Assembly (NCBI GenBank): GCA_050084515.1
Contig: CM114271.1
Location: forward strand, 44,826,001-44,890,000
Direction of reading: 5' to 3'
From: Blasia pusilla
Lineage: Eukaryota
DNA: 64,000 nt
Shown: one piece after another, positions 8,974 through 56,190 of the stretch
Position numbering within the stretch: position 1 is the first letter of the stretch
Layout: every line of letters begins with the position of its first letter
The notes under the pieces: generated by a model
The model's input: only the letters and a program-made list of their open reading frames with translations
Databases searched by the model: none
What the model was told of the DNA's origin: nothing
Position numbers and translations under genes: made by a program

Positions 8974-10748
8974 AATATCTTATTCTTTTACTTAGAAACA
9001 TGATAATTATATCAATATTTATGTACTTTATTCTCAAGTTGCCGTTAGGACACTATACTTCTCATATTTTAACTATTATGTTGCTTTTTTCAATATTTTT
9101 TTTATATCATTATTTTTCTTCCAAGACCGCAATCCAGCCATAAAAGAATAGCTTATTAAAAATCAACCAATCAATTTCAATAGATGCCATCCTATCTATG
9201 CTTCTTTTGGTGGCGAGGCATGCATATATACTATTGTTCAGAAGTTTGTTGCTAAATGCATGGTATGTGATCAAATCCGGACATCATTCAATGTTGTAAC
9301 TCAATAGTTGGATATATTTCCAATTAGGTGTTGATGATGGTCGAGCATTTCTTGAAGTGTATAGAGTTCATTGCATTGTTGGAAAATGCCAATGAGGGAG
9401 TAGCATATCCCTTCCTATATCGAGTACTAAGTCATTATGGTACACCATCATGGTGTTGACAAATCGGGGTACGGAGTTTTCTGGGGACTTTCAAAGCTTA
9501 CGCTGATAGACCAAAGCAATACTTTGCGAAATCATCCTAAGGGGGATGGACTAGTGGAGAAATTTTTTTAAGACGATGAAAAGAAGTTTATGCAAGTATA
9601 TCTTGTAGAGAGATCACATAGGAGATTGGGAGCTAAAATTGTCAATGGGATACAAATTCAGCAAGCGGGTATCCCTAAAGTATTTCTCATCGTATTTTTT
9701 GCTTTATGCCCAAAAGTCTGATTAACCTACGGACGTTCGTCGCAATGATGATGAGGTGTTAATGGATGCGAGCATGTTCTCAAAATTATTAGTTGTTTGG
9801 AAGAGTTATACCCGTGGCGTTTGAGAACTTGGCCATAACACATCATCGGAATACTTTGAGATCTAGGACTACTCGAGGAGGTGATTATTGACTGACAATC
9901 TGAAAGTCTCATCAAGAAGACTTTGTCTACTTCAAGCATATGGCACCTACGATATTGGATGTAACATCAAGATGCACGTACCATCTTGAGAACATGTGAT
10001 GTATTTCTACATGGTGTTCTCTTAAATATTAGAGAGATGCAAAGCTATGGTTTGCAAAGACCATGTGCGATTGATATATTGTAGGAAATACTGCTAAGAT
10101 TGATCCAATTTTAGCAGTAGTTCTTACACTCTTGCATTGTACCTTGTGTGGGCTTGCGCGTGGTGCATCTTGTATGCTAGTATGTGATGGATGTTCGAGA
10201 GGATGGCACGTGATATGTTTGTGGCCACCTCTCATTAATTTCCATCTTAGACTATGCATACGCTCTGGATATACATAGAGTAGAAACTAGATAGTCACAA
10301 ATCCAAACTTGTGTTTATAACATGAATGATAAGAAGGCAATCAACGATGAAGCTAGATGAGGACCCGACCTTTTTCCTCTTAGCGTCTTAGAGATGTGTA
10401 TCGAGGTAGGTAGGGACGTATTGCTATTTGGAGTTGGATAGACCTAATTACTAACTAAGGATATGATTGAAGAAATTTTGGAACTCAATTGTGTCCATGT
10501 TTAGATGCTATGAGTAAGTATCGTTTCTTCTAGGTTTGTGTGTGCATTTAGTGCCAAAGATGTATGTTGTGTAGCGATATGTATGTTCACGACAGTTATC
10601 ACGTCTTTTAGGATAATTGACAAGTTTTGGTAGAGCACCTTTGAAGATTTTGGAGAAGAGCCTAATGAGGTCAAGAATGATCTACTTAGGCCTTGGATAA
10701 TCTGAGTGAGCTCGTTTTCCTTTCGTTTCGGCTCATTTGGATCTATAT

Positions 10749-12502
<1,754 letters not shown>

Positions 12503-18940: not shown

Positions 18941-19160
18941 TGTGAGAAAACATAAAGTGACAAAATCACTGAAATCTTTACAAAACTTAGAGATACAAAG
19001 TGGCCTAGTCCGTCCGTGCTCTCACATAAGAGCTTGATGGAACGTGAACTGGGAGATAACTCGACATACGAGAATGCGCTACCGCTGCGGCTCCCGACTA
19101 TTTGACTACTCGGGAAAACTAGGGTTTTTACCTATTTGTCTTCATTTCTATTAATAGAAA
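18941..19160 (+). mobile_element. Truncated LTR of the family also at 33642-44073 and 45305-45775
   Basis: TGTGAGAAAA start. Colinear with 33642-33679 joined to 43711-43900. Confidence 0.65.
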
Positions 19161-21989
19161 AATTTTGTATCAGACTGAAAAGGTTTTCTTCTTGCCAACT
19201 TGAATGATAGCAATCCACTTCACCACCATCCATTTGTATTTCCTTCATACATAGAGCAAGTTTGTTTTATGGAGATGGAGTTGATGGAAGTGAGTGGAGA
19301 GTAGTACTTTTGAAAGAAGCTAGGTCTCGCTGCATTTTTGTAGATGTGTCTAATGTGAGTAAGGATTCGAGTTGTAGGTACCATAGGCCATGGCCTAAAG
19401 GTAAATTTAAAATTGTCAAAATATTTATCATGTATGAATAATACTCTCATTGAACAAAATGACATTAAAGTTGTTATAGATCAATCAAATGTCAATCATG
19501 TAACTTGAGTGGAAGTTTTGCAAGACATGGTAAACAAAGAGATACAATACAATTTGGTAGTTAACAAAGAGGACAACCAATGATCTAGATTGCTTTAGAA
19601 ATGCCACTTTATGTATGTTTATAATATGTGGTAAGGTCTCTTATGGGGATCAACCTTTCCCTTCATTTTGATAGTTATTAGACCTGATTATTATGGGTCC
19701 CAATACTTTCAAAACAAGTCTTGCCTTCACAAAAATCCAATCCCCATTTTGTGTTCAAGTATGAAGCTAGATATTGGAGAGAATGACCTCGAAAATAGAT
19801 TTGGTGAAGTAGAAGTCCAAACTCTTCACAACTAGAAAATTTGAAAGACACCTTGCTCTAGATTGTGGAAAAGTCAAGTTGGCATTGTTCATTCCAAGGA
19901 ACTTTTGTATAAAAAAATTGGAAGCCCTTTTTTATAGTGACGGTTTGCGGGATGCATGCCACCAAAAAAGAGCCAAATTGTGTGCACAAAGATAATATAA
20001 GTAAAGATATTATCCAAGCCTCGTGATATATATACCATCCAATGATTGAGAAAGGGATGGATTAAATTGGAAGAGGTAATGAGGATTATGATGATACTAC
20101 TCATAGTCATTTGAAAAAAGAGAGAGCTTGACCACCCAAAAGACTACAAATTTGACTTCCATGATGTGGATGAAATTTTTTCCACTGATAATGAGATGGA
20201 GGCTACTCTAAAGGCTTATGAGTAGAATCATGACCATAACATATAAGAGAGGAAAGAGATGGAGAGAGCCCTTTTTCAAAAATTATAATTGAAATTTGTA
20301 TTCTTGGTGTAATGTTCAGGGTTGGGCTTCATTTAGTGGCTTAGTGCTTGCAATTTCCAAAAGGTCACTTAAGTATGATCTGTACATATATTTGTTTGTG
20401 GTGTGGAGTGAATATGCTTGTGTTTATCAACTTGTTACTAATGAAACAATTCATAAGAAGATTTTTTTTTAAAGTATGCATATCCATCAACTATAATGCT
20501 TTTCCAACATAGCTTAAAGGTTTCCATAGAATATATATTCTCTGGTCTCTTTAGGAAAAAAAATGGCCTCAAGAGAAAAAAATTAGAATCTATCTAAGAT
20601 ATCATGTCTCAGATTGAGGAAATGGGATATATCTACGAGGAAGATTATGGGGTCTATGAAGAGTCACTTGATCTTGTAGGTAAACATGATGTATTCATTT
20701 CAAGAGTTCTTGACTGATAGACAAAGAATTGTAGTATGAGATACTAACCATGTTTGTTTGTCGATTGAACTTATTGTGTTTAATTAACAAGATATTTGAT
20801 GTGTGTGTCTGTGTAGGGAACACGTGGTTTAAAAAAATACACTTTGAGGATGTACAGACCAAAAAATTGCTCTCATCAATAGGGAGCATCTACATCCTCT
20901 TACACGAGTAGATAGGGAAAAAATATTCCACGAACCTCCATATCCCTCTCACACTTGGAGAGGGGGTCCTTCTTGGGGTGGGTGGTATAACTAGCATCCT
21001 CCCAGTGTATATGGAAGGTCTTGTGAGCAAGACGCTTAACCCATGGATGAAAGACCTTTCCATCCTAGAGATATTGAGAGGAACATGGAGAGGGTTTTCC
21101 AAGGGGAAGATACATGCGGGACTATTCACTGCTTTGGATGAATCTCAAAGACAAGATTCCTATAGTAATATACGACGTGATATAGTAGAAGAGTAAGGAT
21201 ATGAAAATCTCGGATACCCCATTGCAAGTTGCTACCAATGGCATGGAGCAAGCATACATTTGGATGAAGATTCATTTCATATCACTTATCTATTATGTAT
21301 TTCTTGTTATCTTCAATAATCTAATAGGAGTTTTTAAAGGTTTTAATGTCTAGAGAATCATAATGATCCTTTAATTGTAAATGGATTCACCTCTCATTTT
21401 TGCCACTAGCTTTTCATTTTGAAGTTGCATGTGTGTATTAACTGTATTGACTTTGGTCACATTTCTTCAACCATATTTCCGATTATTTTCGTTACAAGGG
21501 ATCCATATAGTAAAATCCAACCATGTATGATTTCCACCTCATCGAAGAAAACACTCTTTGAGTGTTTTTTTGAAAAAATGAGAAGTGAGGATCCTTGCCT
21601 CATCAAAGAAAGTGTGACCTTTTGAATAAAGAGGGCTCTAAGTAGAGTAAGTCCCATCTTTGACTTAGATGTGAGTTTTTTAGACAAGATGGTCCGATAA
21701 TGCAACCCCTTGTTATAATGTATATATGGTTGAGTGATGTAAAGGTATATGTGGATGATATGTTACTTGGATATTTCATGTTTGGACATAGATAAGCAAG
21801 ATATTATTTTCATGGCCACTTTTCGTAATCATATGGACATGGCTTAAGAATATGTATGTGCATCTAGTTTAAACTAGGATTGCTTAAGGAAGAAGATGTC
21901 TTCTTTTTTAAGGACTACTAGTAAAAAACATATATTGTTGTCACTAATCAAACCAAAAAATAGTATACTCATATATATATCGTTTGCGA

Positions 21990-24900
21990 AGAACTCTAGC
22001 AAGAGGTGATGTTAAACATATCTCATCATCTCGAACATCCACCATAGACTAGCATTGTGGTTGCACCTCTAGCAAATCCACCCAACATACATCGCAAACG
22101 TATATGTATCATTAACAAGCTTGAATCAAGTATACCATCGACATTGGGATGGTGATATGGCCTCTAATTTTATACATGGTCACCAAACCATACTATCACA
22201 CCACTCTAAGACGAGGACACCAAGTGGAAAAACTTCATATACCCACAAAATAGTGTGCCTTGTAGTCACATCAAAAGTTGTTACCAAACTCAAGATCATC
22301 CGCTATAGGTAGACATAATTCCTCTTATGGAGCTTTTGGATCACCATTTGATAACTCCTCTCCAAATGGTGGCATACCTCAATCAAGGCCTAAATATATC
22401 CTAATGTTGTGGGAAATTTCCAAGCTCTTGAATGCCACGGTCCTGGTTGCAAAAAATAGGACAAGTCTAGATATATCCATGAACGCGGATTGTAAGAGGT
22501 GGGGCTCACACTTAAAGTTCACAATGGAAGTAAGGGCAAGGACGAATGTGGCAATAAGGGAGAGGGAGTGGAGATGGAGGGAGGAAGAAATGGGAAAGTA
22601 TGGAACCTCAAGGCAAGTGGGGGAAATGGGAAAAATGGGGAAGGTAGGGCCCACATAGACAAGTCCTTCTATAAGACGGACATACCTCCACAAACATGGA
22701 CATGTACGTGGACACAAACCTATTCCACATACAACCTTGGCCACGGTCATGACTCTCGTAAATGTCTCTACTACTTATAAATGTAATCATATCCACACAT
22801 CATGTTCATAAAGGATTTAACACCTCACTAGCATAACAATGGCCGTAGGTACATCCATCCCATTGTCCAAAGAGCAAAAAGTAAGGTGAAGAGGATGTCA
22901 AGGATGCATGCCTACTAGACCTATATCTCATTGCCAACCATAGCAATGGGATATAGATCTCCAATCTCCCAAGAGACTTCTTTAGAGGCCATATTCGGGA
23001 AAACCCCTATTCACCATGTGTATTACTTGTTTGGCTAGACCATCCCCCTTGGGATGATCTTTCAAAATCATTCGACGGTGGATCAAAAACTCCTTACGCA
23101 AGCCTTGAAACTCCCCACAATACTCAATTCCATGGTCTATCAACACTTCTTTTGGTGCAATACCATACCGACTTAGCAATCAATAAAGGAATGCATAAGC
23201 TACTTGATTACTTGCCTTGTTGTGCCATATAACAACCTATATCCACTTTGAGAAGTACTTGACCATTACCAATACACATATGTTTTGGGGCTTTGCCAAT
23301 GATAAGGGCCTTGCAAAATCCAAGCTCTGTAGCATCCTAAACCCATGATTGGATGTAGATGCAATTGTGTAGTGGGAGCATTGATCAATGCTTGAACTCT
23401 ATCACACCATCCATATAGTGAAAAATGATTGTACGTCTCTTTGTATGCCTCATCACCAATATTTTACTTGGAGCAAGCTATATATATGCTTTATCTTAAA
23501 ATAACCCAACTCCTCATAGGCATGTTGTCTCAATTGGCTCTCTACACGGATAAGAAAACACTCGTATAGTTTCATCCTCATGAATTCGAAAATCATTTTT
23601 GTCTTCTTGCCTAGGGCATCTCGCTTATTGTAGGATGCAATCCTATCATCTCGCTCTCTCTAGTTCCCACTATGTAGTTAATATATAGATATTTCAAGAC
23701 AACCCCATCCTCATAGATATCTTCAACACTTATTGCATCCTCACTATTTACACTATAGAAAATTTGGATTCGTAAATCTATTGATTAGATTAAAAATTGA
23801 TAACGAAACAAATTCAAAGGCTTTGGTTCGAGATCAAGTTTTTTCCTCTCAAAATAGAGCTATAATATCACCGCCACCTTCCATCACCCTTACTCCATAA
23901 ATTTAAGAATAGCATCTCTAATCAACGACATAGCCAATGAGAGATTAAATAACCTAATGGAAGTCAATAATTAGCGATCCATTTGATCATTATATCTTTC
24001 CTCGAACAATTGGATTACGCCTTGCATAATATTATGGCCATAGATTGGATGGCAATTGTAAATTGCTGAGGGGATATTGTTGCACAAGTAAATGTAGACT
24101 TAACTTTCTTTGTCCCATGGACCTTATTGAGAACAAGGTAGATTTCTAAAGGTGGGCTGCATGCATTTTGATAGGGAAGTCTATAGGGAATGGAACCCTT
24201 GGTTGGAGGGATTTTTTTGGAAGCGTTCTTGAGTGGTATACTCAAGTGTGAGGGTGTATATGTAAGAACAGTGGGAATCAAAATTCAATCACTACAAAGA
24301 AGGTGTGCTTTATGCTCCCCGTAAGAGTCTCAAAAGCAAAAAAGGGAGAGCCTGAAAAACCAAAAAGATGACGGGAAAACCCATCAAAAGTACAAAAGAG
24401 GGTTACTCAAAGAGTTGAGTGCATAAAGGTCACATCTGGCCCATGGGAAAAAAAGGAGATCCCCTGTTGATTAAACTTACCTTCAATAGAGACAATATCA
24501 ACGATGTTTAGAAAAACATGACTACCACTAAGAGGGCCTCTAGCACTAGCATCTCCCATGGTCCGAGTCTGCCTCAAAAGCCCATTGGCTTGGGCACACT
24601 ACAAAGCTATGGAAACCCTTTTCCTCCAATGAAGAATTGTAGAAACTAAAGACAACCCATTTCTCGATTGGAGACAATGAGCATAATCTGTAAGGAACAA
24701 GTCAAACATCTTCCCATAGCCCCATACGTCTTTGTGTCAAGGGGGACAAATTGATGTCCATTATGATGTCAACTATAGTCTTTTTCTCCTCCCCTGCTCC
24801 TTGTAACAATCTCTCTTGTACTATTATATGGGCTCGTATAGATTGTTGCATAGAATTTGTCACTACAACATCCACCACCACCACCACCTTAGTCTCTCGC

Positions 24901-33100: not shown

Positions 33101-33679
33101 TATTAAATTTTACATTTTCCAAGTAGAACAACAAGGTTGATGATATATTACACATTATTTAAAAACAAGTTTAAGATTGTATAAACTTAAAGTTTCTTAA
33201 TTATTTGGTTTGCACTTGGATCCTTTTTTGGCTCAATGTTATCACATCCTTTTCAAAACCAATTTGATAGAGAAGTATTTGCAAGTTCATGTTATATGTA
33301 GTTTTATTCGAGCTCCACTTTTGTTAGTGGTTGAATGATCATGCCATCCAAGTGGAGTAGAGACTCAGAGACAAATGATTAAACCCCCGTGTAGATGAAC
33401 TTAAGAATTGATTCAATATATACCATCAACTATACAAGGAGCATGTTGCTAGTATGATGAAGACGCCAAGAAATTTTCATGATAGAGTTTCAGTGAGCTT
33501 CTAAAGGCTTGGATGCCTACTCATCTCTTGGACTCTTCATTTATTTTTTGGTCTGATTTTTACAGGTATTAAAATTTTCTTTGTTGTAATGGTGTTGTAT
33601 ACATCCAACATTCCAAGCTCTATGTGGAATTTTATATTAGTTGTGAGAAAACAAAATGTGACGTAAATACTCAAATATG

Positions 33680-34239
33680 TGTCACGTCCTTTAGGATAGA
33701 TCGGTGAGATCTAGTAGAGCGTCTTCAAGAGTAGTGGAGGACAGGTCGAGGATGACTTGCTGAGGCCCCTAGAGGCAGGTCATCCCCTTCGTTTTGGCTC
33801 CGGGAGGTAGGTCATCCCCTTCGTTTTGCTGCTGAGGCCCCGGGAGGCAGGTCATCCCCTTCGTTTTGGCTCATTTGGAGCCATATTGAGGAACTTACTA
33901 TTTTAGGTAAGTACCATTTTGAGTATATGATCGACTTTATATTTTTGGTAAGTGGCCCTTGACCTCCTACATCACGTCAAGAGCCAAAGAGGTGACTTGG
34001 GAGAATAGGTTACCATGGAGAGAGCTTGGGAGAAGGGAGGGGTATATATCCCAAGGAGAGAGAGCTTGAGAGCTCATTCTCTCTTTGTTGAACCTCTTGG
34101 CATGAGGCGGTAGAGCTATGGTCCCTTGCCTTGTGAGTATAACCCAAGCCTCTCATTAGGAGAGTGGGTTTGGTTTGACATGAGAGAGAGTGCACACCTT
34201 TGGGAGCTATGGTGTGAGATTGTGTAGAGAGCGATTGGA
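33680..34239 (+). repeat. Split direct repeat A1
   Basis: Near-identical to 43064-43584, apart from a rearranged block at 33745-33860. Not followed by B. Confidence 0.92.
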
Positions 34240-35907
34240 TCTTACTTTACAAAGAGAGAATGCGAGAATGAGAGAGTGAGAGAGCTTCATGGGGGAACTC
34301 GCTGGTCAATCGTTGTTTTTGCAGGTTGGGGACCATGTTCCCCATTCAACTGCTCATGGGAGTGCTCATCGGAGCAAGGGTTGCTTGGATTGTTCTTTGC
34401 ATTTGCCGAGTTTTCGTGTGGAAGAGTGGCGCGCGGAAGCGCTGCCCAATTTTTGATAGTGATTGAGTATGGGGGCGGGTTGCCCCATGCCGGTGCTTTT
34501 GGGAGCACCATGTTGCTTTCTGATTTGCATTTTTATAGGTTTTACATTTTTTTTGGGAGGAATTAGCACGGAAGCGTTGCCGAATATTGGGTAGAAGAAA
34601 GAGACATTGGGCTTTACGACAGTTCCCGTCAATTTTACTCAAATGTCCAATTCCAAATGTTTTTTGATGCAGGTGTAGATCGTGAAGCTGTGCACGCTGT
34701 GCAATAACCAGTGCGCAATTTGGAGTTGCGAGCAAAAAGTTATGGTTAATCTTGAAAAACTGTCATTGCTAGGAGATTTGTATGGTTAAATTGTGCAAAC
34801 CCTAAACCAACCGCCACACCGGCGGCGGCCGTCGCCGTTATAGTCACCGTCAACCATCAACGGTCAACTTTCACCGTCCATGGTCAACCGTCACCAGCGA
34901 CGGTCAACTGTCATTGTCAATGGTCCACCGTCCATTGTCCACCCTTGGTTGCCATTGCCGCCGTTAAGGAGTGGAGGGTCTTCCACAACGTTCGTTGATT
35001 CTCGGACTTGCGTCGCCATCACGTACTTTGTTTTGGCCGCCACCGTCATCAACTTGTGATGGCATATGACCTCCTGTTATAGTGTTTGAGTTTTGATATC
35101 CTGGTGCTTGTTGTGATTGGTAGCCGCTCAACGACGATCAGGTACCGTGCCGTGACGCCCGTAGCTGCAACGCGCCGCCGATTGCCATGTCGTGCCGCTC
35201 GTGGCCGCACCGCACCATCTTGATTGCGGAGCCGCTCTGGCATTGTGGAGCAGAGTGTGGGTTTATTTTTGATTGAGGAGGGTATGCCGCCGAGTGCCGC
35301 ATCCCATCATCGAGGGTCGTGCCGTTCGTAGCCGTTCCGTGCCGCCGCAACGCCGCACCGTTCCGTTGGAACTGCACCGTCTATCGAGGAGTTTTGAGCA
35401 ACATCGGTATGGGAGGAGTATCACTTGCTGATTGGAGGAGTTGTCTCCACGACCGAGTTGGGGTCGAGATTCGCAGTTGTTGAGGAGCGACATCGACATG
35501 TGTTCAAGTTACCCATTATGGTCCTTTACCTTGCACGTGTAAGGGATTATGGGATTTGGGTAGTTTATTTGGGGATATTGGGTGTGTGAATGGTGAGAGC
35601 ATCATTTATGTATGTGATTTAGGGGACATAGACCTGTGTGGGATATCCGGAGTTGAGGGTAGGTTGTCGATGAGATGATAGCCTGGTCGATTTGCCGCAC
35701 CACGCCGCTTATTGCCGCACGTTACATCTCGGGGAGGGAGAGTGAAGATCGAGTGCCGCATGTTTGGGATGAGTGATTGAGGGATTACTCGCGAGGCAAG
35801 AGTGATCGGGTGAGAAGGGAACGAGGGTCATCACGGCATCCATTCGGGACTTTGAGAGGCGAGGTGGTGAACCCGACAGTAGCTCTAGAGGTTTTACGGG
35901 GAGTGGC

Positions 35908-37100
35908 GTGAGGTTCCGAGGGTCTTCACTTCAGGGACCACCTCGACCTCCTTCTGTGTCATCGTCAGACAAGGGGGAGGGTGTAGAGGAATTTGTGAGC
36001 ACATCGCCACACAATGTGAGTGGTCCTACTTGTTGGGCGTACGATATGGACGACCGAGGTAGAGGACCGCGTATTTTTTCAGGTGTAGTAGGTACGATTG
36101 AGTTCACAATTTCATAGCAGAGTTTAGGAGTTGGTGCGACTCCCAGCAGGCCATGAACTCTAGAGAGTTCAACACGTTTACAACATGGAACGGTATGTTC
36201 CAGCATTTAGAGGGGGCACCCATGGACGATTACCATGAGTTCTCCCACAGATATGCCCAGGAGATTGAGGCATGGCGACTCTGCTACGACCCCCACTATG
36301 TGTCATGGACGGAGCCGTTCCCAGATGAGGAGGAGGAGTCATGAGAGGCTACTTCCTCTTCCACTAGTGATGTTTTAGGAGGGGTCATTCGCACTGGAGC
36401 AGTTGCACCGTCTAGTCGGGTTCGTCCCAGGTTCAACCCTGTGGTTGAGTTCTTTGCTGAGTTGAGGGCGAGCTACCAAGGGGTATGGACAGAAAAGTTG
36501 CGGAGCATCCACAACTTCCAGAGGCGCACGGGTGAGAGTTTACGTGAGGCTTACACTCGCTTGCGCCGGTTGATCAACGTTACTCAGGGGGTGACGGAGG
36601 CTAAGGTTATCCAGTCATGGTACGCGATGCGGGACGAGACTCTACGACCACGGGTGCGGGAGGGGGTGCTTCTTATGAACATCTCCCCTACGTTGAGAGA
36701 TGTTTTTAGGACCGCCGAGAACATTAAGCGCAACATGGAGGAGGAGAGCGTAGCCACCATGGGTTCTAAGCAAGAGCAATCGCGATTGGCTCGCACCACG
36801 TGTGCAGCAACGTGGACTCCGAGATAGGTCAAGTGTGGCACCACGAGCTCAGGGAGGATACCGGGAGCCCGTGGCACAGAGACATGCGCCTTCATATGCG
36901 GCTCAACAGAAGCCGCCTACTATTACTTGTTGGCCATGTGGAAGAGCCCATCATCAGCGCCATTGCACTCGTCAGGGTCATGGACGTATGCCTCAGCATG
37001 GAGGAGGAGATGGTGCTCCACCAGGAGGTTATCAGTGTGACTATTGTTAGAGGTATGGTCATACACGCACCAAGTGTTTACGTTTACATCCTGAGTTACG
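35908..37100 (+). pseudogene. gag: gag (capsid-like region and two zinc knuckles)
   Basis: FQRRTGESLREAYTRLRRLI retrotransposon-gag motif. Knuckles CWPCGRAHHQRHC and CDYC*RYGHTRTKC. Stops and frameshifts present, true start uncertain. Confidence 0.8.
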
Positions 37101-37959
37101 TTCAGACCGAGGGCCAGAGAGGGCACCAGAGTGAGTAGCCGGTCCGGGTGGGCCTAGAGATCATGCACCAGGTGGTCCCGTTGGGGGACGAGGAGCTCGA
37201 GTTGCCCGATAGGGTGGTGGAGCTGCTTGTGGAGGAGGTAGAGTACCACCACCTAGATGCGCCGAGGGAGACGTTGGACGTGAGGTTGGGATGGCTGCTC
37301 AGATATAGCAGCTACAGGAGCAGATTGCCGCTATGGCATTGAGGTTACCTGATGCCAGATCCGTGGCATCGACATCATATGGAGCAGCTAGAGATCTGGA
37401 GGATCCTGGTTGGATGTCCGGGGCTGCCTAGATGGAGGCCGCCGCTATTGTGACGCGTGGAGCAGCCGTAGAGTTGGATCCACAACGAGAAGCCAGAAAA
37501 CAGACTAGGCTTCCTCAATCTTTCACGTTGTCCAAAGCGATGAGGATCCCATCGATGGGTCCTCATCAAAGTTCCTAGAGAGTTGGTGATGTTGTTGGTG
37601 TGCAGGCACGGAGGGCGATGGGAGAAGCGAGTGCAACGACTCCTATTGTTGATGCTCATGAGGGGCATCTGTCGAGCACATTGTTGGGGGCGGCCACCGT
37701 TGTGTACCGCACTCCTTTATTTTCTGCTTCGGATGTTATGACGTTGGGGGGTACGCCCGCCGAGGCATTTTGGCTGGCCGCGTTGCTATGTGAGCGCAGA
37801 GTTGGAGTTCTTGCATCACGTTCAGAGGTGATTGTAGAGGAGGTGATGGACCTGCCCTTGGAGCGGATGCTCGGACCGTCCACGTCAGATTCATGGCAAG
37901 CTGCGGCTGCTAGAATGGCGGAGATGCCCGCTAGACCCGCGATAGAGTATGCCATGGCT

Positions 37960-38376
37960 TCTCCTAGTGTTGTGTTGCTGGATAACCAAGGAGAGGTCTT
38001 CCAATTGGTGAGTCTTGGAGGAAGAGCTTTTAGTCCGCAACGCGTCTTGTTGGATTCAGGAGCGCAACCCCTGATGTTGGGAAAAGCGTCATTCAGAGGA
38101 TTGGGCTTGACGAGAGCCGATGTGGAGCGTTGTCCATTCCGGATACAGACATCCTTGGGTGGAGCGAATACCACACAGTATATCACCCAACAAGAGGTCA
38201 TGGTGAGGATTTGCCCGGGACATCCTACTGATGAGTCTGTGGTGCGCGCCAAGGCGATAGTGACTGATACAGAGTCCTACGACGTCTTGGTTGGTGAAGG
38301 AGTGTTATACCCGATGGGGTTTTCCCTGGATAACTGGGAGGAGTGCGTCCTACAGACCAAGATAGCAGTCAGGTGA
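37960..38376 (+). pseudogene. Retropepsin aspartic protease domain
   Basis: RVLLDSGAQPLMLG catalytic motif and C-terminal YDVLVG. Confidence 0.85.
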
Positions 38377-38761
38377 TGGGCGCCTTAGCTCATTATCCGT
38401 TCGATTCACAGGTGCAGTGATTGAGCAACGGCCAGGAGAGATGGCGACCTTAGCAGCATTTAGCAGTGCCATCACTTGGCCTAGTGATTTGATTGAGGGA
38501 CATGTCCATGCAGAGGATACTCCCGTTCCTAACATTTCTATGGAGAGGAGTGTTATGGTAGGTGCATCATTCCGTTGAGGAGAGGTGCCAATGTGGGGCT
38601 CGACTGAGGAGCTTCGACGATTGGCAGATGAGCACATGCAGACCGCGTGGAGCGAGGCATTTGCACCGGAGCGTGACGGGTTTGAGAAACCTGAGGTAGC
38701 AGGGAGTGGTATGATGACACCCTTGGATACCACACCCATTGTGTGGTGTACCCCGGAGGAG

Positions 38762-39380
38762 GGTATTTGAGTGTTAGATCTCTTTGGAGGGATTGGCACT
38801 GGGTTAGCTGCTGTTTTGTAGGCAGGAGTGCGAGTACAACAGTATCTGTATGTATAGGAGAGTGATGATGTTGCAAGGCGCGTCTCACTACGACATGTGG
38901 CGCGATTACGCCTACGTTTTCCCGACTCATTATGCAAGGTCAGCGATCTGAATACCGAGTTCCTTCCGAGGGATATTTCGTTGTTGGGGGCGCAGGACTT
39001 AGAGCGGGTAGGGACCGTTGATTTGGTCATTGCCGGTTGGCCATGTCAAGGCCAATCGAGTGTTGAACGAGGCATGGGTTGGCGGACACTCGGTCCATGT
39101 TGTTTTGGGAGATGTTGAGGGTCTTACGTCAGTTGCAGGAGTACCAGTCTCATTCTCCAACCGACATTGTGGAGAATGTGCCGATCTTAGGAGACTCCCG
39201 GTCACGGGTGGTGACAAGTGTTCATCAAGTGCGTGCCTAGATCGGCCCAACAGTGTTCTTGGGTGCGGCGAGTGTAGGATTCTTGGATGCGGCAAGAAAT
39301 GACGTCGTGATGCCTCTTGGGTCAGGCGATGGACCTGAACTGCTTGACATGGATCCTCAGCTTGGGAGTGGCTGAGCAGC
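38762..39380 (+). pseudogene. DNMT3-like C5-cytosine DNA methyltransferase domain within pol (disabled in this copy)
   Basis: Motif I GI*VLDLFGGIGTGL (38762-), motif IV DLVIAGWPCQGQS (PC at 39041-39046), GLADTRSMLFWEMLRVL, motif VI IVENV (ENV 39172-39180), motif X-like LLGQAMD (39314-). Confidence 0.9.
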
Positions 39381-39688
39381 GTCGTATGAGATCGCAACAG
39401 CTCATAGCGGTTGCGTTGGTGAGCCCCATGCCTACCGAGACGGTGGAGGTAGTGGCTGGGGGCGACACCCGAGGAGATCGGGAGAGACACCCTTGGACTT
39501 CTTGGGAATTTTTGCAAGTACGCAAGGAGATGATAGCCACAACATTGAGCGTGGTTTCGGGCATTGCACGTGGAGGAGATAAGAGTTTGCAGTTGGCTGC
39601 AAGAGAGCGGCTGAGTGTTGTTGTTCGAGACGGGGTTGCACCATAGCAACCAGCGATACCGCGACCGGAGAGTCCTACCGTAGTCACG

Positions 39689-41110
39689 ATGGAGACTTGG
39701 GAGCCATATATGGGCCCTAAGTTGACAGGAGAAGAGCGGCGCCGAATACATCAATTCCTCAAGAGTTATAGGAGCTGCTTTGCGTTTAGCATGGAGGATT
39801 TGGATACGCTGAAGGGACCGGGGATCCGCATTGAGTTGTCGAGTGATACGCCAATCTTCCGACGACCCTACAGGTACAGTGATATGGAGAGGGCTCTGAT
39901 TCAGAGTAGGAGCCAAGACTTGGTCAGAGCAGGACTAGTGGAGATGTCGCATGGACAGTATGCATCTGCCATTGTAATGCCCGCCAAGAAGGATGTGCAT
40001 GACAATTGGACGGATAGGCGGATGTGTGGGGATTACCGACCTATCAATCGGCAGACGAAGTCCGATAGGTATGCCATGCCCACCCCTGAGGAGATCTTTG
40101 ATGCGATTGGTCATGCAAAGGTCTTTAGTTCATTGATTTTTGAAGTCGGATACCATCAACTACCTATCGATTGGAGGACAAAGTAAGACGGCATTTTGGG
40201 GCATCGATCCTCACGGGAAGGATTGTTTGTACCAGTGGCGGTTCTTACCATTTGGGTTAAAGAACGCCCCGGCTGAGTTTCAGAGGGTCATGGATAGGAT
40301 CTTGGCTGGTCTGGATTTTGCTAAGTGTTATATTGATGACATCGTAGTCTTTACCGCCACGGTTGAGGATCATGAGCGACATAAAGAGGAGGTGTTTCGA
40401 CGATTGCAATTACATGGGCTGAAGCTACATCTAGGCAAGTGCAAGTTCTTCTACGACCAGATTGAGTACTTGGGTCATACGATATACCCAGGGGGCCTTG
40501 GTGTTCAGCAAATGAAGGTAGAGGCTATCTCACGCATTCCACGCCCTATAGATGTGAGCCGGGTTCGCGCATTCATGGGATTGGCGAACTTCTATCGGCA
40601 ATACGTAAAGGGATTCGGTTTGATTGCGAAGCCAATGACCTTGCTGACCAAGGTGGATCACGAGTGGCACTGGGGGGATGAGCAGGAGCAAGCATTTCAG
40701 TTGCTCAAGGACATGTTGACGTCTGTGCCCATCTTGAGGAGACCAATCAGGGGGCGTCCTTTCCAATTGCACACAGATTGGAGCATGTTGGGGCTTGCAG
40801 CGGTGCTCACCCAACATGATAATGATAGTAGAGAGTTCGTGGTGGCTTACGCTAGCCGCTCGAACAACGCTGCAGAGGCAAAGTATAGCTCGTATGAGGG
40901 TGAGTGCTTGCTGCGGTGTGGATTGTTGCATATTTCAGGTGTTACTTATTCGGCAACCCCTTGACCATCACCACTGAAGTGGTTGATGGAGTCCGACAAG
41001 CTTACAGGGAAGCTTGTGAGATGGGCTCTGTTGTTGCAGGAGTATGATTTTCAGGTGGTACATAGACCTGGGACGCTCAACCAAGATGCAGATGGGTTGA
41101 GTCGTAAACC
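39689..41110 (+). pseudogene. pol: Reverse transcriptase and RNase H (Ty3/Gypsy type)
   Basis: RMCGDYRPIN, LPFGLKNAPAEFQR, YIDD (40329-40340), LHTDWS, AYASR, YSSYEGE, NQDADGLSR. A few frameshifts. Confidence 0.95.
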
Positions 41111-41399
41111 ATGTTCGAGTCAGCGAGATGCGACTGGAGCTCGATGGCATGGAGAGAGTGATAAGGAGTCGGTGCTAGGATGGCACGCGTCAGCCTATTT
41201 AGGCATGTTGGCTTTGGAGAGCCAGAGTGTGGAGACTTCGATGGCGAGTCCTAATGGAGAGTCCTTAGATCCCGAGGCCAGTGAGGAGACGACAGGTGGC
41301 TGAGATATTCATGATGATGGAGTAGTCTTGGAGTACCTTCATGATCGGCAGCGTTTAGCAATCTTTGAGGTGCTAGAGAGCGAGATCGGATCCTACAGC

Positions 41400-42600
41400 G
41401 GGTCAGACGCTTCCGTTGGGAGGGGACACATGTTTTGAGGGTTTGGGAGGATGGCAGAGTACGCGTAGTGCCACATCTTTCGCAGAAAGCACGACTAGTG
41501 CAGCATGCCCACGAGGAGTTGGGTCACTTTGGGGTGAAGCGGACGTACAGCTTGCTCTAGATTTAGTATTGGTGGCGAGGCATGCAAACTGACGTTCAGC
41601 AGTTTGTTGCCATGTGCATGGTGTGTGATCGGGTCCGAGCATCGTTCCATGCTCTAACTCCACAGTTGCATCCATTACCGATCATGGGCTTAGGGTGTAG
41701 ATGGATTTTGGATTTTGCAGGACCTTTGCCTTTGACAGAATGTCATGGTTGTTATGTGTTGGTGATGGTCGAGCACTTCTCAAAGTGGATCGAGTTGGTT
41801 GCATTGCCTGACAAAGCGAGTGAGGGAGTAGCTTATGCCTTCCTTGACAGAGTGTTGAGTCAATATGGTGCACCGGTTGAGGTGTTGCAGACCATGGTAC
41901 CGAGTTTCGGGGTGAGTTCCAAGCCTTGTGTGATCAAGCGCTGATCGACCACCGCACGACTTGGCGAGATCATCCCGAGGCGGATGGATTAGCGGAGAGA
42001 GTTGTGCAGACGGTGAAGAGAGGTTTACGCAAGTATGGCTTGCACAGAGGTCACCTAGGAGATTGGGACCTCCAGTTGCCATGGTTGGCGATGGGAAACA
42101 GATTCAGCAGGCAGACATCCTTAGCATCTTTTTCACCGTATTTGCTACTTTATGGCCGAGAGCCAGATTTACCTACGGCCATTCGTCGAGATGCTGATGA
42201 GGTGCTGGACCTTGATGACCCAGATGTATGGGTGCGAGCATGTTCTCAGAGGGCTGAGTTGTTTTGGAGAGTGATGCCCATGGCGTTTGAGAACTTGGCG
42301 ATTGCGCAACATCGAGATACGTTGAGGTATGTGACTATTCGGGGAGGTGGTTATCGACCAACTATCGGGAGGTTTCATCGGGGAGATTTTGTCTACTTGC
42401 AGCAGACGGCACCGACGACGTTGGATGTGACTACATGGCGTACTATCCTGAGAGTGCTTGACGTTTTGCCATCCGGTGTTCTTTTGCTGGAGGGACGCGA
42501 TGGTATGGTATGGAAGGACCATGTGCGTAATTGTGCACCATGTCACCTTCCTAACATTGATAGTACAATGGATCCGAGCTTAGTAGTAGTTCCAACAGGC
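41400..42600 (+). pseudogene. DDE integrase with HHCC zinc domain
   Basis: HAHEELGHFG...CMVC, LDFAGP, EHFSKW, DHGTEF (frameshifted), HPEADGLAERVV, SPYLLLYGR. Confidence 0.93.
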
Positions 42601-42606
42601 TTGCGT

Positions 42607-42747
42607 TGTATGTTGTGTGGTTCTGCCCGTGGTGCGGCCACGATGGTGGTCTGTGATGGTTGTTCGAGAGGTTGGCATATGGCATGTCTGACGCCACCTC
42701 TCACTAGGGTTCCTTGGGGACGATGGATGTATGCCACATGTACTTAG
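42607..42747 (+). pseudogene. C-terminal PHD finger fused in frame to integrase
   Basis: CMLC...MVVCDGCSRGWHMACLTPPLTRVPWGRWMYATC fits C4HC3, with the penultimate Cys mutated to Tyr (TGT>TAT). Confidence 0.9.
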
Positions 42748-42930
42748 AGGAGATACTAGGTAGGTTTCGATCCCGACTTTTTCTCTGACATGGATGACAT
42801 GAAGGCGACTAACAATGGGGCCACATGAGCACCCGGCCTTCTTGCTCTTAGCGTCCGGGAGATGTATGTCATGGTAGGTAGGGATAGATGGCTATCTGGA
42901 GTTATAGGGACCTAACCACCAACTAGGGGG

Positions 42931-43061
42931 GCGATTGGAGATACTTTGGTACTTCTTGTCTCGTTGTTTGGATGCCATAAGTTAGCATGGGATCGTGCGT
43001 GTTTGTGTGTGTGTTTGGTGATAGCGATGTATATTGTGTAGCGATGTGTATGCGCACGACA
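42931..43061 (+). repeat. Split direct repeat B1
   Basis: Near-identical to 43578-43706. Ends GCGCACGACA. Confidence 0.92.
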
Positions 43062-43063
43062 AG

Positions 43064-43706
43064 TGTCACGTCCTTTAGGATAGATCGGTGAGATCTAGTA
43101 GAGCGTCTTCAAGAGTAGTGGAGGACAGGCCTAGGAGGTCGAGGATGACTTGCTGAGGCCCTGGAAAACCTGAGAGACCAGGTTTCCCCTTCGTTTTGGC
43201 TCATTTGGAGCCATATTGAGGAACTTACTATTTTAGGTAAGTACCATTTTGAGTATATGATCAGCTTTCTATTTTTTGTAAGTGGCCCTTGACCTCCTAC
43301 ATTAGGTGAAGAGCCAAAGAGGTGACTTGGGAGAATAGGTTACCATGGAGAGAGATTGGGAGAGGGAAGGGGTATATATCCCAATGAGAGAGAGCTTGAG
43401 AGCTCATTCTCTCTTTGTTGAACCTCTTGGCATGAGGCGGCAGAGCTATGGTCCCTTGCCTTGTGAGTATAACCCAAGCCTCTCATTAGGAGAGTGGGTT
43501 TGGTTTGACATGAGAGAGAGTGCACACCTTTGAGAGCTATGGTGTGAGATTGTATAGAGAGAGATTATGTAGAGAGAGATTGGAGATATTTTGGTACTTC
43601 TTGTCTCATTGTTTGGATGCCATGAGTTAGCATGGGATCGTGCGTGTTTGTGTGTGTGTTCGGTGATAGCGATGTATGTTGTGTAGCGATGTGTATGCGC
43701 ACAACA
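43064..43706 (+). repeat. Split direct repeats A2 (43064-43584) and B2 (43578-43706)
   Basis: A2 matches A1 and B2 matches B1. They overlap at GATTGGA. Confidence 0.92.
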
Positions 43707-44832
43707 TATGTTACAAATCTTGGAGATACAAAGTGACCTACTCTGTTCGTGCGCTCACACAAGAGCTTCGATGGAATTGGCCTTGAACATGGATATAACT
43801 CGTCATACGAGAATACGTTATCACTATGGCTCCCGGCTATTTGACTTCTCGAGAAATCAGGGTTTTTACCTAATTTTCTTTGTTTCTATTTATAGAAAAA
43901 ACCGTGAGGGATTGCGTCCTATACCCCCGCGTCATTTGGCATCGCATCTAATCCTACTCCAAAAACCACCTTCATGATATTATTATAACTCCTCCAACGT
44001 CTAAGTCTGAACCATCAGTCCAAGCTTCTCCTTGTATAAGGGGGCCGATCAGTTTAATGTTGAGAATCCAATATTTTTTTGATAGTGACTAATAAATTTG
44101 CTTGAAGTAATTAATTTCAAAGTGGGTTGATTCATTGAATTGTGATGGTGAATATTTGATAATTAGAGAATAAATTTTTCTATCACAAAGTATACAAGTT
44201 TGGGAGCATCTAATTTTTGGCTAGCCAAATCTCACACATCGATGACAAAGATAAATTCCATGGAAGAAAATTTCCAATTGGCCTCTTGAAATTCAAAGTT
44301 TTGATTGTTAATGATCATAGTGCATAACTCCTATTTCCAAACTTGGACAATGATCCACCACAACTATTGGTCAATCAAGCTTTGGGTAGTTATCAGTTGT
44401 GGCCAAACAGTAATGCCAAGAAAACTCAAATTCTTGCACCTTAGTTTTTAAATTAGATTAGAGATTATTTTAGGTTTTTTGGTGAATTCCAATTCCTCTT
44501 TTACAAGAATTTTGAACTTCAATTTATGTTGTTAGTCCTAGTGCTATATGCACATTTTGGCTAGTAGTGTTGTGAGTTATATTTCTATTGTTAAGTTTGA
44601 ATATCTTCCATCATCATAGAAATGAACGTCAATGAATCTTTGTTTATTGAATTTCATGCATCATCATAAGATGCAACATGCATATGATATATTTTTTTCA
44701 TCGTTATTTTTCTAATATTCATGTAATTTCAAGCTACATTGTGGGCTTCTAATGATTTTGAAATTCTTTACATTAAGGAAACTGGTATAGTTATTAAATA
44801 GGTATCATGTGCATACACAATATACATTATGG

Positions 44833-53994: not shown

Positions 53995-56190
53995 ACCCTA
54001 GTCGTGTTCCAAAACTGCTAGTCGTGTTCAAAAACTGGTTCTCACCACTTTGGCAACCAACCTTCCAAGACAACTCATCTCAAGTCTTCGTTCGCGTTTG
54101 GTCTAGATTTCCTCTTCGTGACTACTAACGTATGAAACACACTACTGTGTTCCACGTTTCAATCTCTTGGACTTTTCCAAGAGACCTTCCAAAAGCCTCT
54201 CCAAAGCACGGTCATCTCAGCATGAGTCCACTTGAGTTTTGATGGTCCGCTTGGCGCCTATTTTGTGTTCGTTTGGTTATGAGGGTCGCGACACTCACCC
54301 CTCCTTAGAAGGTTGATGTCCTCATCAATGCAAAAATTTTTAATGTTAAGTTATAGGAAGCCGACCCCTTAACACTGAATCACGTTCAAGTAGCTAATCC
54401 GCAATTCCACTTTTGGCTTAAGTCTTAGGCACTTGGATTTATTAGCTTCTCTACTTCAATTAGCCTAGACCAGTTTTGCAGAACTAATCTTAACTATCAA
54501 AATAAGCTAACTAAGTGTGCAATCTAGCATTTCACTCACTATTTGTAAACAATCACATGTTTACCTAACCAACTCGTACTACTTTTGGGTCACTCTCATT
54601 CTACTTAGGCGCGTCACTAAGTTCACTCATGCAACATGAATGAGATCACCATAAACCCCAAGACATACTAATCTGCCCCGTTGACATTAGGGTGGGTCCA
54701 AATGTCAGTATTTCAACATCCTGATCTAGATGTCTTACCCAAATACAATATCTCACCTCAAATACTCATTGTTTGGCCTCCTTAACTTACATCCTAAGCA
54801 TATGAAGAACTACTCATTGCCATGCACTACCAAACTCAAAATCACAATCACTAGCATCAAATCTCCAAATCCATGCATTCTTTATTGCAACAACTAATTT
54901 TTTTTAGTTACAACAGGTTATCGGCCAAAGCTTCCCGATCACAAGTTATGTCCTTTGCTTCACCATGTACTAACATATGTGCCTATCTTGCATCCATTTG
55001 AAGTCTTGCAATGCCTCTTGCGCGTGTTTAAGATTTGCCTCCTCAATCCAAGTCGCTTCTTTCACATGGTAGCCTTTCCACTTGACCAAGTACTCGTACT
55101 TGGCGGCTCTACGTCTGGAATGCATAATGGTCTCCACCTCGAACTCTGGTTCATCAATTTTGATGACTGGATGTGGTCTCAACAAAATCCTTTGTTCCAG
55201 ACGCACGTTGTCTTGAAGACACTTCTTCAATTATGACACATGGAAAGTCGGGTGAATCTTGAACTCGTTTGGCAACTCCAATGTGTACAAATCCTCAAAC
55301 GACTTTGCCTTCATCACATACGGTCCAACATAATTGGTTGACAATTTCGTAGACAATTCCTTTGAAAGAGTGAGATTCTTTACATTCAACCCCACTTGTT
55401 CCCTGATTTGGAAACTCAATTGGCACCAACTTTTGTTAGCATGCTTCACGTACCTTAGTTGAGCCTTGGCAAGACTTCTTCTCGCTCGTTCTTGTCATTC
55501 CTACATTTCCACTAACAAATATTCCACTATTGCTTGACGAGTGTGTGCTGATTTAGCGCCCCTCGAAAGGGCCAAGTCAAGAGGCCCTTATGGTTCTCTT
55601 AGATACGCCAGAAGAAACGAAGATTCTTGGGTTACAGAATGCTTGGTGGAGTTGTAACAATGCTCAGCCACTTTTCCCAATCTCTTTGGTCCGCGCTCAC
55701 GTAATTCCTTAAATACTAGTTCACGACCGATTTTACTTTTCCGTTTGCCCATCCGTTTGAGGATGGAAGGCCGTACTAAAGCTGAGTTTGGTCCTAAACC
55801 TCATGAATAGATGTTTCCAAAAGGCACTGGTAAACTTTGGATCTCCGTTGGACATGATGCTACTAATCAATCCATGAGCTCGCCACCAACCATCCAAGAA
55901 CAGTCGGGAAGTTGTGTAGGCCGTCGCAAAATCTCTCATCGGCACAAACCTCCCCAACTTGCTAAACCGATCAACTATCACAAGTAAAGCGTTGTATCCC
56001 TCAGATTTCCGAAAACTCGTGATGAAATCCATGCTAATGCTTGACAAGGGTCCCTCTGAGATCGGCAAAGGACGAAGTAAGCCTAGCTTGCTTCTTCGCA
56101 TAAGAAACTTTACTCGCTTGACAAATCACGCAGGTCTTCACATATTGAGCAACATCATCTTGCATGTTGGGCCAGAAGAACCTTTTGGCA
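53995..56190 (-). mobile_element. Chromovirus 3' fragment: integrase, GPY/F, chromodomain, PPT, partial 3' LTR
   Basis: ISMDFIT, VDRFSK, FHPQTDGQTE, YVGPY, IHPTFHVS. Chromodomain EFEVETIMHSR...YEYLVKWKGY...ATWIEEANL. PPT AAGGAGGGGTGAG abuts TGTCGCGACC at 54293. Confidence 0.9.

Follow-up and report, generated by a model that had tools for sequence, protein, structure and literature searches.

Background

Gypsy retrotransposons that carry a DNA methyltransferase have been described before. In KnitGypsy-Dnmt3 (de Mendoza et al. 2018, PMC5890265) a DNMT3 lies within pol, and according to the legend of Fig. 4c the repeats follow a DIRS-like A-coding-B-A-B layout. A PHD finger is mentioned neither in the text of that paper nor in three of its supplements. 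The preprint on EpiLTRs/DAM-LTRs describes LTR elements that stack methyltransferases with a histone reader; in its text the combination of chromodomain, DAM and DNMT is treated as new, and Gypsy-DNMT3 is named as a separate acquisition (bioRxiv 10.64898/2026.05.21.726589).

Histone readers on mobile elements are known as well. In chromoviruses, targeting through the chromodomain is the accepted role (as cited in bioRxiv 2021.11.30.470311 and 10.64898/2026.05.21.726589). For Chlamydomonas two PHD-bearing Gypsy elements are in print: REM1 (Perez-Alegre 2005), as described by citing papers, and Gypsy-7a_cRei, for which 86 new insertions were reported that fall in intergenic sequence 2.6 times as often as expected (PMC9940879). 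PHD- and Chromo-transposon fusions have been surveyed in general terms (Grau-Bove et al., bioRxiv 2021.11.30.470311), and one Ginger1 transposase carries a PHD (PMC2836005). In the texts searched we found no statement that Gypsy-DNMT3 elements carry an integrase-borne PHD, though figures or bioRxiv supplements may show one.

Here we analyse a stretch of 64,000 nucleotides from Blasia pusilla (the window), in which an earlier note, made from the letters alone, had pointed to a PHD finger at the end of a retrotransposon integrase. Since PHD-bearing Gypsy and Gypsy-DNMT3 elements have both been published, this is not a new kind of system. The pairing of PHD and DNMT3 is nonetheless real and family-wide, its parts having been known before.

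Results and discussion

The host element

The finger belongs to a Ty3/Gypsy element of about 10 kb (33679-43706, referred to as copy A), which is bounded by direct repeats. Its features are the following:

33679..34236 (+): 5' direct repeat A1 (97% and 95.6% identity to 43063-43136 and 43179-43566)
36345..36827 (+): gag remnant (Retrotrans_gag E 0.01, under the Pfam cut-off)
37579..38376 (+): aspartic protease region (weak Pfam match, E 0.076)
38342..39279 (+): DNMT3-like cytosine methyltransferase, split among at least three frames (tblastn from the DNMT parts of relatives)
39647..41303 (+): reverse transcriptase and RNase H, interrupted by one frameshift and one stop (RVT_1 E 1.2e-22, RT_RNaseH_2 E 8.9e-23)
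41345..42606 (+): integrase, made up of an H2C2 finger, a DDE core and an SH3-like C-terminal domain (Integrase_H2C2 E 1.3e-5, rve E 7e-6; tblastn of relatives)
42607..42744 (+): PHD finger, seven of eight zinc ligands, stop at 42745-42747 (PF00628 E 2.4e-9, 37.5 bits)
42925..42931 (+): purine run AGGGGGG just before B1, a possible polypurine tract
42933..43061 (+): direct repeat B1 (95% identity to 43578-43706)
43063..43566 (+): direct repeat A2 (A1 and A2 95.6-97% alike)
43578..43706 (+): direct repeat B2, the element's 3' end (B1 and B2 95% alike)

The repeats are laid out as A-coding-B-A-B, with A at the 5' end and B-A-B at the 3' end; the bases flanking the ends of these split repeats hold no exact target-site duplication. 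The G+C content is 0.47-0.55 in the 2-kb bins spanning the element (34001-44000), against 0.31-0.50 elsewhere in the window. Protease, reverse transcriptase, RNase H and integrase are present in this pol order (Pfam, tblastn), and the reverse transcriptase of a colinear relative, P0391, is best matched by that of Ty3 (E 4e-48). The chromodomain profile PF00385 is absent from the element's frames (Pfam), so by that criterion it is not a chromovirus. The stretch 35352-37484, which includes the gag remnant, is matched by a second copy of the element at 28876-26773, and the Marchantia models P0391 and P0388 cover 37636-38343, within the protease region (tblastn).

The suggested pairing of the chromatin reader with a methylation writer holds, as the same element encodes a DNMT3-type cytosine methyltransferase (sub-threshold PF00145, tblastn and comparison to P0391). 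The DNMT of P0391, a Marchantia relative, is colinear with 38342-39279 (tblastn); among solved DNMTs it matches only DNMT3A, 3B and 3C (best E 2.3e-6). In the window the PCQ motif is in another frame than the ENV motif, and PF00145 gives two colinear matches that stay under the Pfam cut-off because of the frameshifts. A further frameshift is located in the integrase near 41884-41908. Copy A is dead, given that frameshifts and stops interrupt DNMT, reverse transcriptase, RNase H and integrase and that the seventh zinc ligand of the finger is Tyr. Overall, the element matches the published Gypsy-DNMT3 type, a known family of which it is a dead member.

The finger of copy A

The first Cys codon of the finger starts at 42607 and a TAG stop follows at 42745-42747. 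Both are part of an unbroken open frame of 288 codons (41881-42747, + strand), which runs from the second half of the integrase core through the integrase C-terminal domain and the finger to the TAG. PF00628 matches residues 243-287 of this frame at E 3.1e-8 if the whole frame is queried; with the last 65 residues as query the match reaches E 2.4e-9 (37.5 bits against a curated cut-off of 24). Translated in six frames, the window contains the core pattern C4HC at two places, 42607 (copy A) and 10138 (copy B); in 100 shuffles of the window it never occurs.

The ligands are spaced C-x2-C-x11-C-x2-C-x4-H-x2-C-x14-Y-x2-C, which is the canonical spacing of the family. The finger had been described as a C4HC3 finger in frame after the integrase: frame, coordinates and PF00628 assignment are correct, but the full C4HC3 is not, as ligand 7 is Tyr (TAT) and seven of the eight ligands are left. 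The liverwort, Sphagnum and metagenome copies nearest to this finger have Cys at ligand 7, and we therefore regard the Tyr as decay. The ancestral residue is not readable from the window alone, since none of its three copies has Cys there. The window's finger is a decayed PHD member and not a working finger.

Other repeats in the window

Three PHD-bearing pieces are found in the window, plus one deleted copy. The two decayed pieces besides copy A, and the chromodomain of an unrelated element, are located as follows:

10138..10233 (+): finger remnant in the decayed copy B, whose element piece spans 9207-11185 (tblastn; core-pattern match)
22029..22091 (-): finger remnant in the decayed copy C, whose element piece spans 23524-22029 (tblastn, 55% over 56 residues)
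54997..55143 (-): chromodomain of a chromovirus that is unrelated to the element (PF00385 E 6e-15)

Decayed fingers had been noticed near 10138-10260 and 22030-22100, and both were recovered with tblastn. Copy B keeps ligands 1-6 (10138-10218) and lies just under the Pfam cut-off for PF00628 (22.9 bits against 24, E 8.9e-5). In copy C ligands 2 and 3 are mutated, and its finger is recognisable by tblastn only. The second element copy (31215-26156, - strand, 79-83% identical) has neither pol nor PHD because of an internal deletion, which joins its gag region (equivalent to 37484) to its 3' repeats (equivalent to 43079); at the 3' end (26772-26156) a colinear run passes through A and then B.

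The chromovirus remnant (54970-56125, - strand) consists of integrase core, C-terminal domain and chromodomain. Its chromodomain frame (54970-55230, - strand) comes directly after the frame of the integrase C-terminus, with one in-frame stop between them. With PF00385 at E 6e-15 in this place, the proposal that the finger takes the position held by the chromodomain in the chromovirus at 54970-55150 is borne out.

The earlier note also read the insertions as lying inside other repeats, in line with an insertion bias. The window lends this no support: repeat sequence makes up a single flank of a single copy. This is the 3' flank of copy A (43700-44062), found again at 18978-19162 and, inverted, at 45749-45335; for the 5' flank there is no second copy within the window. 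As only the 3' flank is repeated, and 31% of the window has another copy inside the window anyway, we dropped this reading. The inverted copy of the 3' flank is situated 1.3 kb downstream of the element and adjoins further pieces of the A repeat (45306-44836).

Conservation of the finger on the integrase

Searching the window frame with phmmer against 1.84 billion library representatives yielded 5177 matches at E<=1e-3, of which 389 at E<=1e-30. Nearly all of the best 150 of these 5177 align over query residues 2-287, finger included. A complete C4HC3 stands in the same place in 136 of these best 150 relatives, which keep all the zinc ligands that the earlier note had asked of the consensus; the other 14 are cut short or disrupted. 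The spacing 11/4/14 of the window's copy is also the commonest one (91/136 intact fingers). We hand-picked 23 long relatives from the best 150 for a Pfam domain scan and found the PHD in 22 of them at E<=1e-5, always after the integrase core. Likewise, in all 120 further proteins listed by a profile search PF00628 is accompanied by rve or the integrase zinc-binding domain (precomputed domains). Domain, position, conservation and family being direct observations, the PHD on the integrase C-terminus is a conserved family trait.

A metagenome scan with P0001 gave 21 loci of the chlorophyte type (38-55% identity; see below), which were used for checks of frame integrity and of dN/dS; the close subfamily of the window's copy was not among these 21 loci. 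Over 11 pairs of metagenome copies with dS <1.5 (pairs that are not independent of each other) dN/dS was 0.00-0.49 in the finger and 0.00-0.11 in the preceding 260 codons.

Hosts and phylogeny

Proteins with integrase and PHD have named hosts in Calypogeia fissa, Marchantia polymorpha, Sphagnum fallax and Klebsormidium nitens (KFL_005000010), and among chlorophytes in Chlamydomonas, Volvox, Pleodorina, Haematococcus, Chromochloris and Scenedesmus. One member of this family is the Chlamydomonas protein CHLRE_09g398141v5. The best identity to the window frame is 79-80%; models from Calypogeia and Riccia share 69-70% identity with the window from reverse transcriptase to integrase. Two Marchantia models with 53-57% identity are colinear with the window through protease, DNMT, reverse transcriptase and RNase H. 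In total seven gene models of Marchantia polymorpha match, and the finger is complete in six of them.

To these data we added a maximum-likelihood tree, built quickly from the RT-RNase H part (70 rows taken from our own search hits, SH-aLRT support only, arbitrary root). All 50 family rows fall in one group (SH-aLRT 97), with the five chromodomain-bearing rows outside. As to the clade membership among PHD-bearing Gypsy elements of seed-free plants asked about at the outset, the window groups with Calypogeia and Marchantia (SH-aLRT 95). This liverwort group is nested in a group of 23 rows that also holds Closterium and Klebsormidium rows (SH-aLRT 95). Nine rows labelled as 'short type' come from truncated gene models and show no PHD (P0342, P0388, P0391, P0343, P0354, P0366, P0362, P0374 and P0364).

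The closest intact subfamily is the P0239 cluster with 226 members, whose RT-RH-IN-PHD frames of about 1040 residues are 63-67% identical to the window. It occurs abundantly in environmental assemblies; NCBI lists one of its members under an uncultured cyanobacterium, which is probably a binning error.

A number of public models named 'PHD-type domain-containing protein' (158-222 residues) consist of the integrase C-terminal domain and PHD of this family. Mislabelled in this way are P0440, P0449, P0453, P0461, P0470 and P0523 of Marchantia and P0448, P0455 and P0520 of Calypogeia. Since these liverwort models are pieces of a retrotransposon integrase, they are not to be counted as host chromatin readers.

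Two architectures

In the type to which the window and the streptophyte copies belong, the order is protease, DNMT, reverse transcriptase, RNase H, integrase and PHD. An example is P0357 (1783 residues), with PR at 43-140, DNMT at 305-445, RT at 881-1041, RH at 1106-1235, IN at 1358-1523 and PHD at 1735-1777; P0331 shows the same order. The streptophyte-type protein ends 1-15 residues past the finger in all but one of the copies examined, the exception being the Klebsormidium model with 45 residues.

Chlorophyte-type proteins have their DNMT after RNase H and directly before the integrase. This holds for all five of the 23 long relatives that have a DNMT at E<=1e-5 and also for three intact metagenome frames whose DNMT stays under the cut-off. 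The DNMT thus stands before the reverse transcriptase in the window's type, but follows RNase H and precedes integrase in P0038, P0060, P0077, P0085 and P0086. The DNMT parts of the two architectures are homologous (tblastn E 1e-7 to 1e-10), and since a homologous module occupies two positions, a permutation of the domain order has taken place inside the family. The finger sits on the integrase in both, wherever the DNMT lies. Among the 120 IN-PHD proteins listed by the profile search, 23 have a precomputed PF00145; the remaining 97, many of which are fragments, have no DNMT above threshold.

Chlorophyte-type proteins continue past the finger, with at least 100 residues after 115 of the 136 intact fingers (median 276). 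About 400 conserved residues follow the PHD in L006:10557-11750, L002:5609-6811 and L014:7689-8882. For this tail there is no Pfam match at E<=0.01, and the Atlas leads are all below 0.9. Its structural model (pLDDT 79.6) has a four-strand barrel followed by a predicted Rossmann methyltransferase fold, and the best Foldseek matches (E 1e-4 to 1e-3) are rRNA 2'-O- and N6-adenine DNA methyltransferases and DNMT2. The tail also contains motifs similar to DPxGxG and SPP; it is missing from the window's element.

Additional domains are observed in some relatives. P0398 and P0411 combine the PHD with PF05869 (Dam-type adenine methyltransferase, precomputed). A G-patch lies between DNMT and integrase in P0085, and three other relatives (P0180, P0185 and P0209) have a precomputed G-patch as well. 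P0109 has CCCH fingers at its N-terminus.

What the finger may read and do

The window finger matches 77 distinct solved chains at E<=0.01. Nearest are PHF12, the second fingers of KAT6A, DPF3 and DPF2, CHD4 and the first fingers of KDM5A/B and Lid, together with AIRE PHD1, ATXR5, PHF21A, BAZ2A/B and UHRF1 (E 9e-13 to about 1e-6). We take these to bind the N-terminus of H3 with unmethylated K4, UHRF1 reading R2. Fingers of the ING, BPTF and TAF3 class, which we assume to read H3K4me3, are missing from the nearest solved ones. PHD readers with a methyl-lysine cage as a rule have a Trp two residues before the His ligand; in this position the window has Gly, as do 121 of the 136 relatives, and none of the 136 has Trp. 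The C-terminal stretch resembling Pro-x-Gly-x-Trp is retained in 108 of these fingers. Overall, the comparison points to the class presumed to bind unmodified H3K4, and not to the methyl-lysine cage readers.

The first loop contains at least two acidic residues in 105 of the 136 fingers, the acidic cluster being absent in 10. The liverwort-type subfamily of the window has zero or one acidic residue there, with basic residues instead, and for lack of this cluster the specificity of the reader may differ between subfamilies.

The AlphaFold model of the 288-residue frame is of moderate quality (mean pLDDT 67.7). It predicts a confident beta-domain at residues 188-220 and a finger at pLDDT 76-89, with a linker below 50; this pattern of folded finger and flexible linker would fit a tethered reader.

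Our main reading, to which we assign a probability of roughly 0.55, is that the window holds a decayed integrase module of the Gypsy-DNMT3 type, and that in intact copies of the family the finger most likely tethers integration at H3K4me0 nucleosomes in the way of a chromodomain. In working copies the PHD would hang on a flexible linker behind the SH3-like domain of the integrase and bind the H3 N-terminal tail in its K4-unmethylated state. It would thereby anchor the integration complex to nucleosomes distant from active promoters, as the chromodomain does in chromoviruses. Here we infer histone binding, the preference for H3K4me0 and the effect on insertion sites from similarity to solved readers and by analogy with the chromodomain.

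Instead of steering integration, the finger might guide the element's own DNMT3-like enzyme in place of the animal ADD, so that DNA methylation would fall on new copies or their neighbourhood wherever H3K4 is unmethylated, and integration targeting would be secondary. PHD and DNMT3-like domain do travel together in both architectures, and the nearest solved fingers presumably share the H3K4me0 preference of the ADD. We nevertheless consider this unlikely, as the finger is always found on the integrase, whatever the position of the DNMT, and 97 of the 120 listed proteins (many of them fragments, however) are without an above-threshold DNMT. The idea is weaker still for the window's architecture because three enzymes, reverse transcriptase, RNase H and integrase, lie between DNMT and PHD, and cleavage by the protease would place the two in different proteins. 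For the finger-targeted methylation put forward earlier, nothing was found in support here. It is more plausible in the chlorophyte type, whose DNMT is adjacent to the integrase, so that one mature protein could hold DNMT, integrase and PHD. In addition, algal and protist DNMT3s are said to be without companion domains (text of PMC12344493).

It is quite improbable, in our view, that the finger does not read histones at all and serves as a zinc-stabilised contact with protein or nucleic acid, for instance in integrase assembly or with a host cofactor. PHD-like folds with other partners exist, sequence similarity is what ties this finger to histone readers, and the liverwort subfamily is without the acidic loop. 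On the other hand, the closest solved relatives (E 1e-12 to 1e-7) are all chromatin proteins, the stretch resembling Pro-x-Gly-x-Trp persists in most intact fingers, and the position is that of the chromovirus chromodomain.

A bolder version, which we hold to be distinctly doubtful, sees the element as a self-contained epigenetic unit that would both land in and methylate H3K4me0 chromatin. This is the state that animal DNMT3 finds via its ADD, a domain absent from algal and plant DNMT3s. In the chlorophyte type the unit would be enlarged, past the PHD, by the small barrel and by a second, unclassified domain with a SAM-methyltransferase fold, so that a single pol protein would combine four modules for chromatin or methylation. 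Finally, a chance pattern, or a host exon captured by a single copy, has nothing in its favour except the degeneracy of the window's copy and is refuted by the homologue searches; it is practically impossible in view of the Pfam match (E 2.4e-9), the shuffles (0/100), three copies in the window and hundreds of relatives.

If the finger steers integration as in our main reading, Gypsy elements would have a second, independent route for reading histone marks besides the chromodomain, and PHD-based steering would range from chlorophyte algae to bryophytes. The constant company of PHD and DNMT3-like domain also bears on the question why transposons carry methyltransferases. Marchantia has intact-looking copies of the family, and chromatin maps have reportedly been published for it, which makes the targeting question testable in this species.

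Comparison with known systems

KnitGypsy-Dnmt3 resembles the window's element: by its published description, to which the comparison is confined, both have the domains of a Gypsy element, encode a DNMT3-type methyltransferase within pol and show the A-coding-B-A-B layout. Klebsormidium proteins are relatives at 44-51% identity, and KFL_005000010 has integrase and PHD, but the window copy is closest to the liverwort copies and not to those of Klebsormidium.

With Gypsy-7a_cRei the window's family has in common that a Gypsy LTR element carries a PHD finger in Gag-Pol. However, the figure legend of the Chlamydomonas study lists PHD before INT, so that this is perhaps another family, and the available text of the study makes no mention of a DNMT (PMC9940879). 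Its intergenic excess may, by analogy, serve as a precedent for PHD-linked targeting, though possibly from a different element. The EpiLTRs are approached by the relatives P0398 and P0411 with their precomputed Dam and PHD; their reader, in contrast, is a chromodomain and their DNMT is sister to DNMT4, as stated in the preprint (bioRxiv 10.64898/2026.05.21.726589).

On the level of the finger itself the best solved matches (E 9e-13 to 2e-7) are AIRE PHD1, PHF21A/BHC80, KDM5A/B PHD1, CHD4, BAZ2A/B and the second finger of KAT6A/DPF3. These fingers, which we take to be H3K4me0 readers, share with the family the spacing and the C-terminal Pro-x-Gly-x-Trp stretch. They differ in being part of host chromatin proteins, and the window's subfamily is without the acidic first loop.

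Chromoviruses such as MAGGY, finally, likewise have a small histone reader behind the SH3-like domain of the integrase. The family described here has a PHD in that place, lies apart from the five chromodomain-bearing rows in the RT-RNase H tree, and judging from the finger's sequence would probably have the unmodified H3 tail as its ligand instead of H3K9me.
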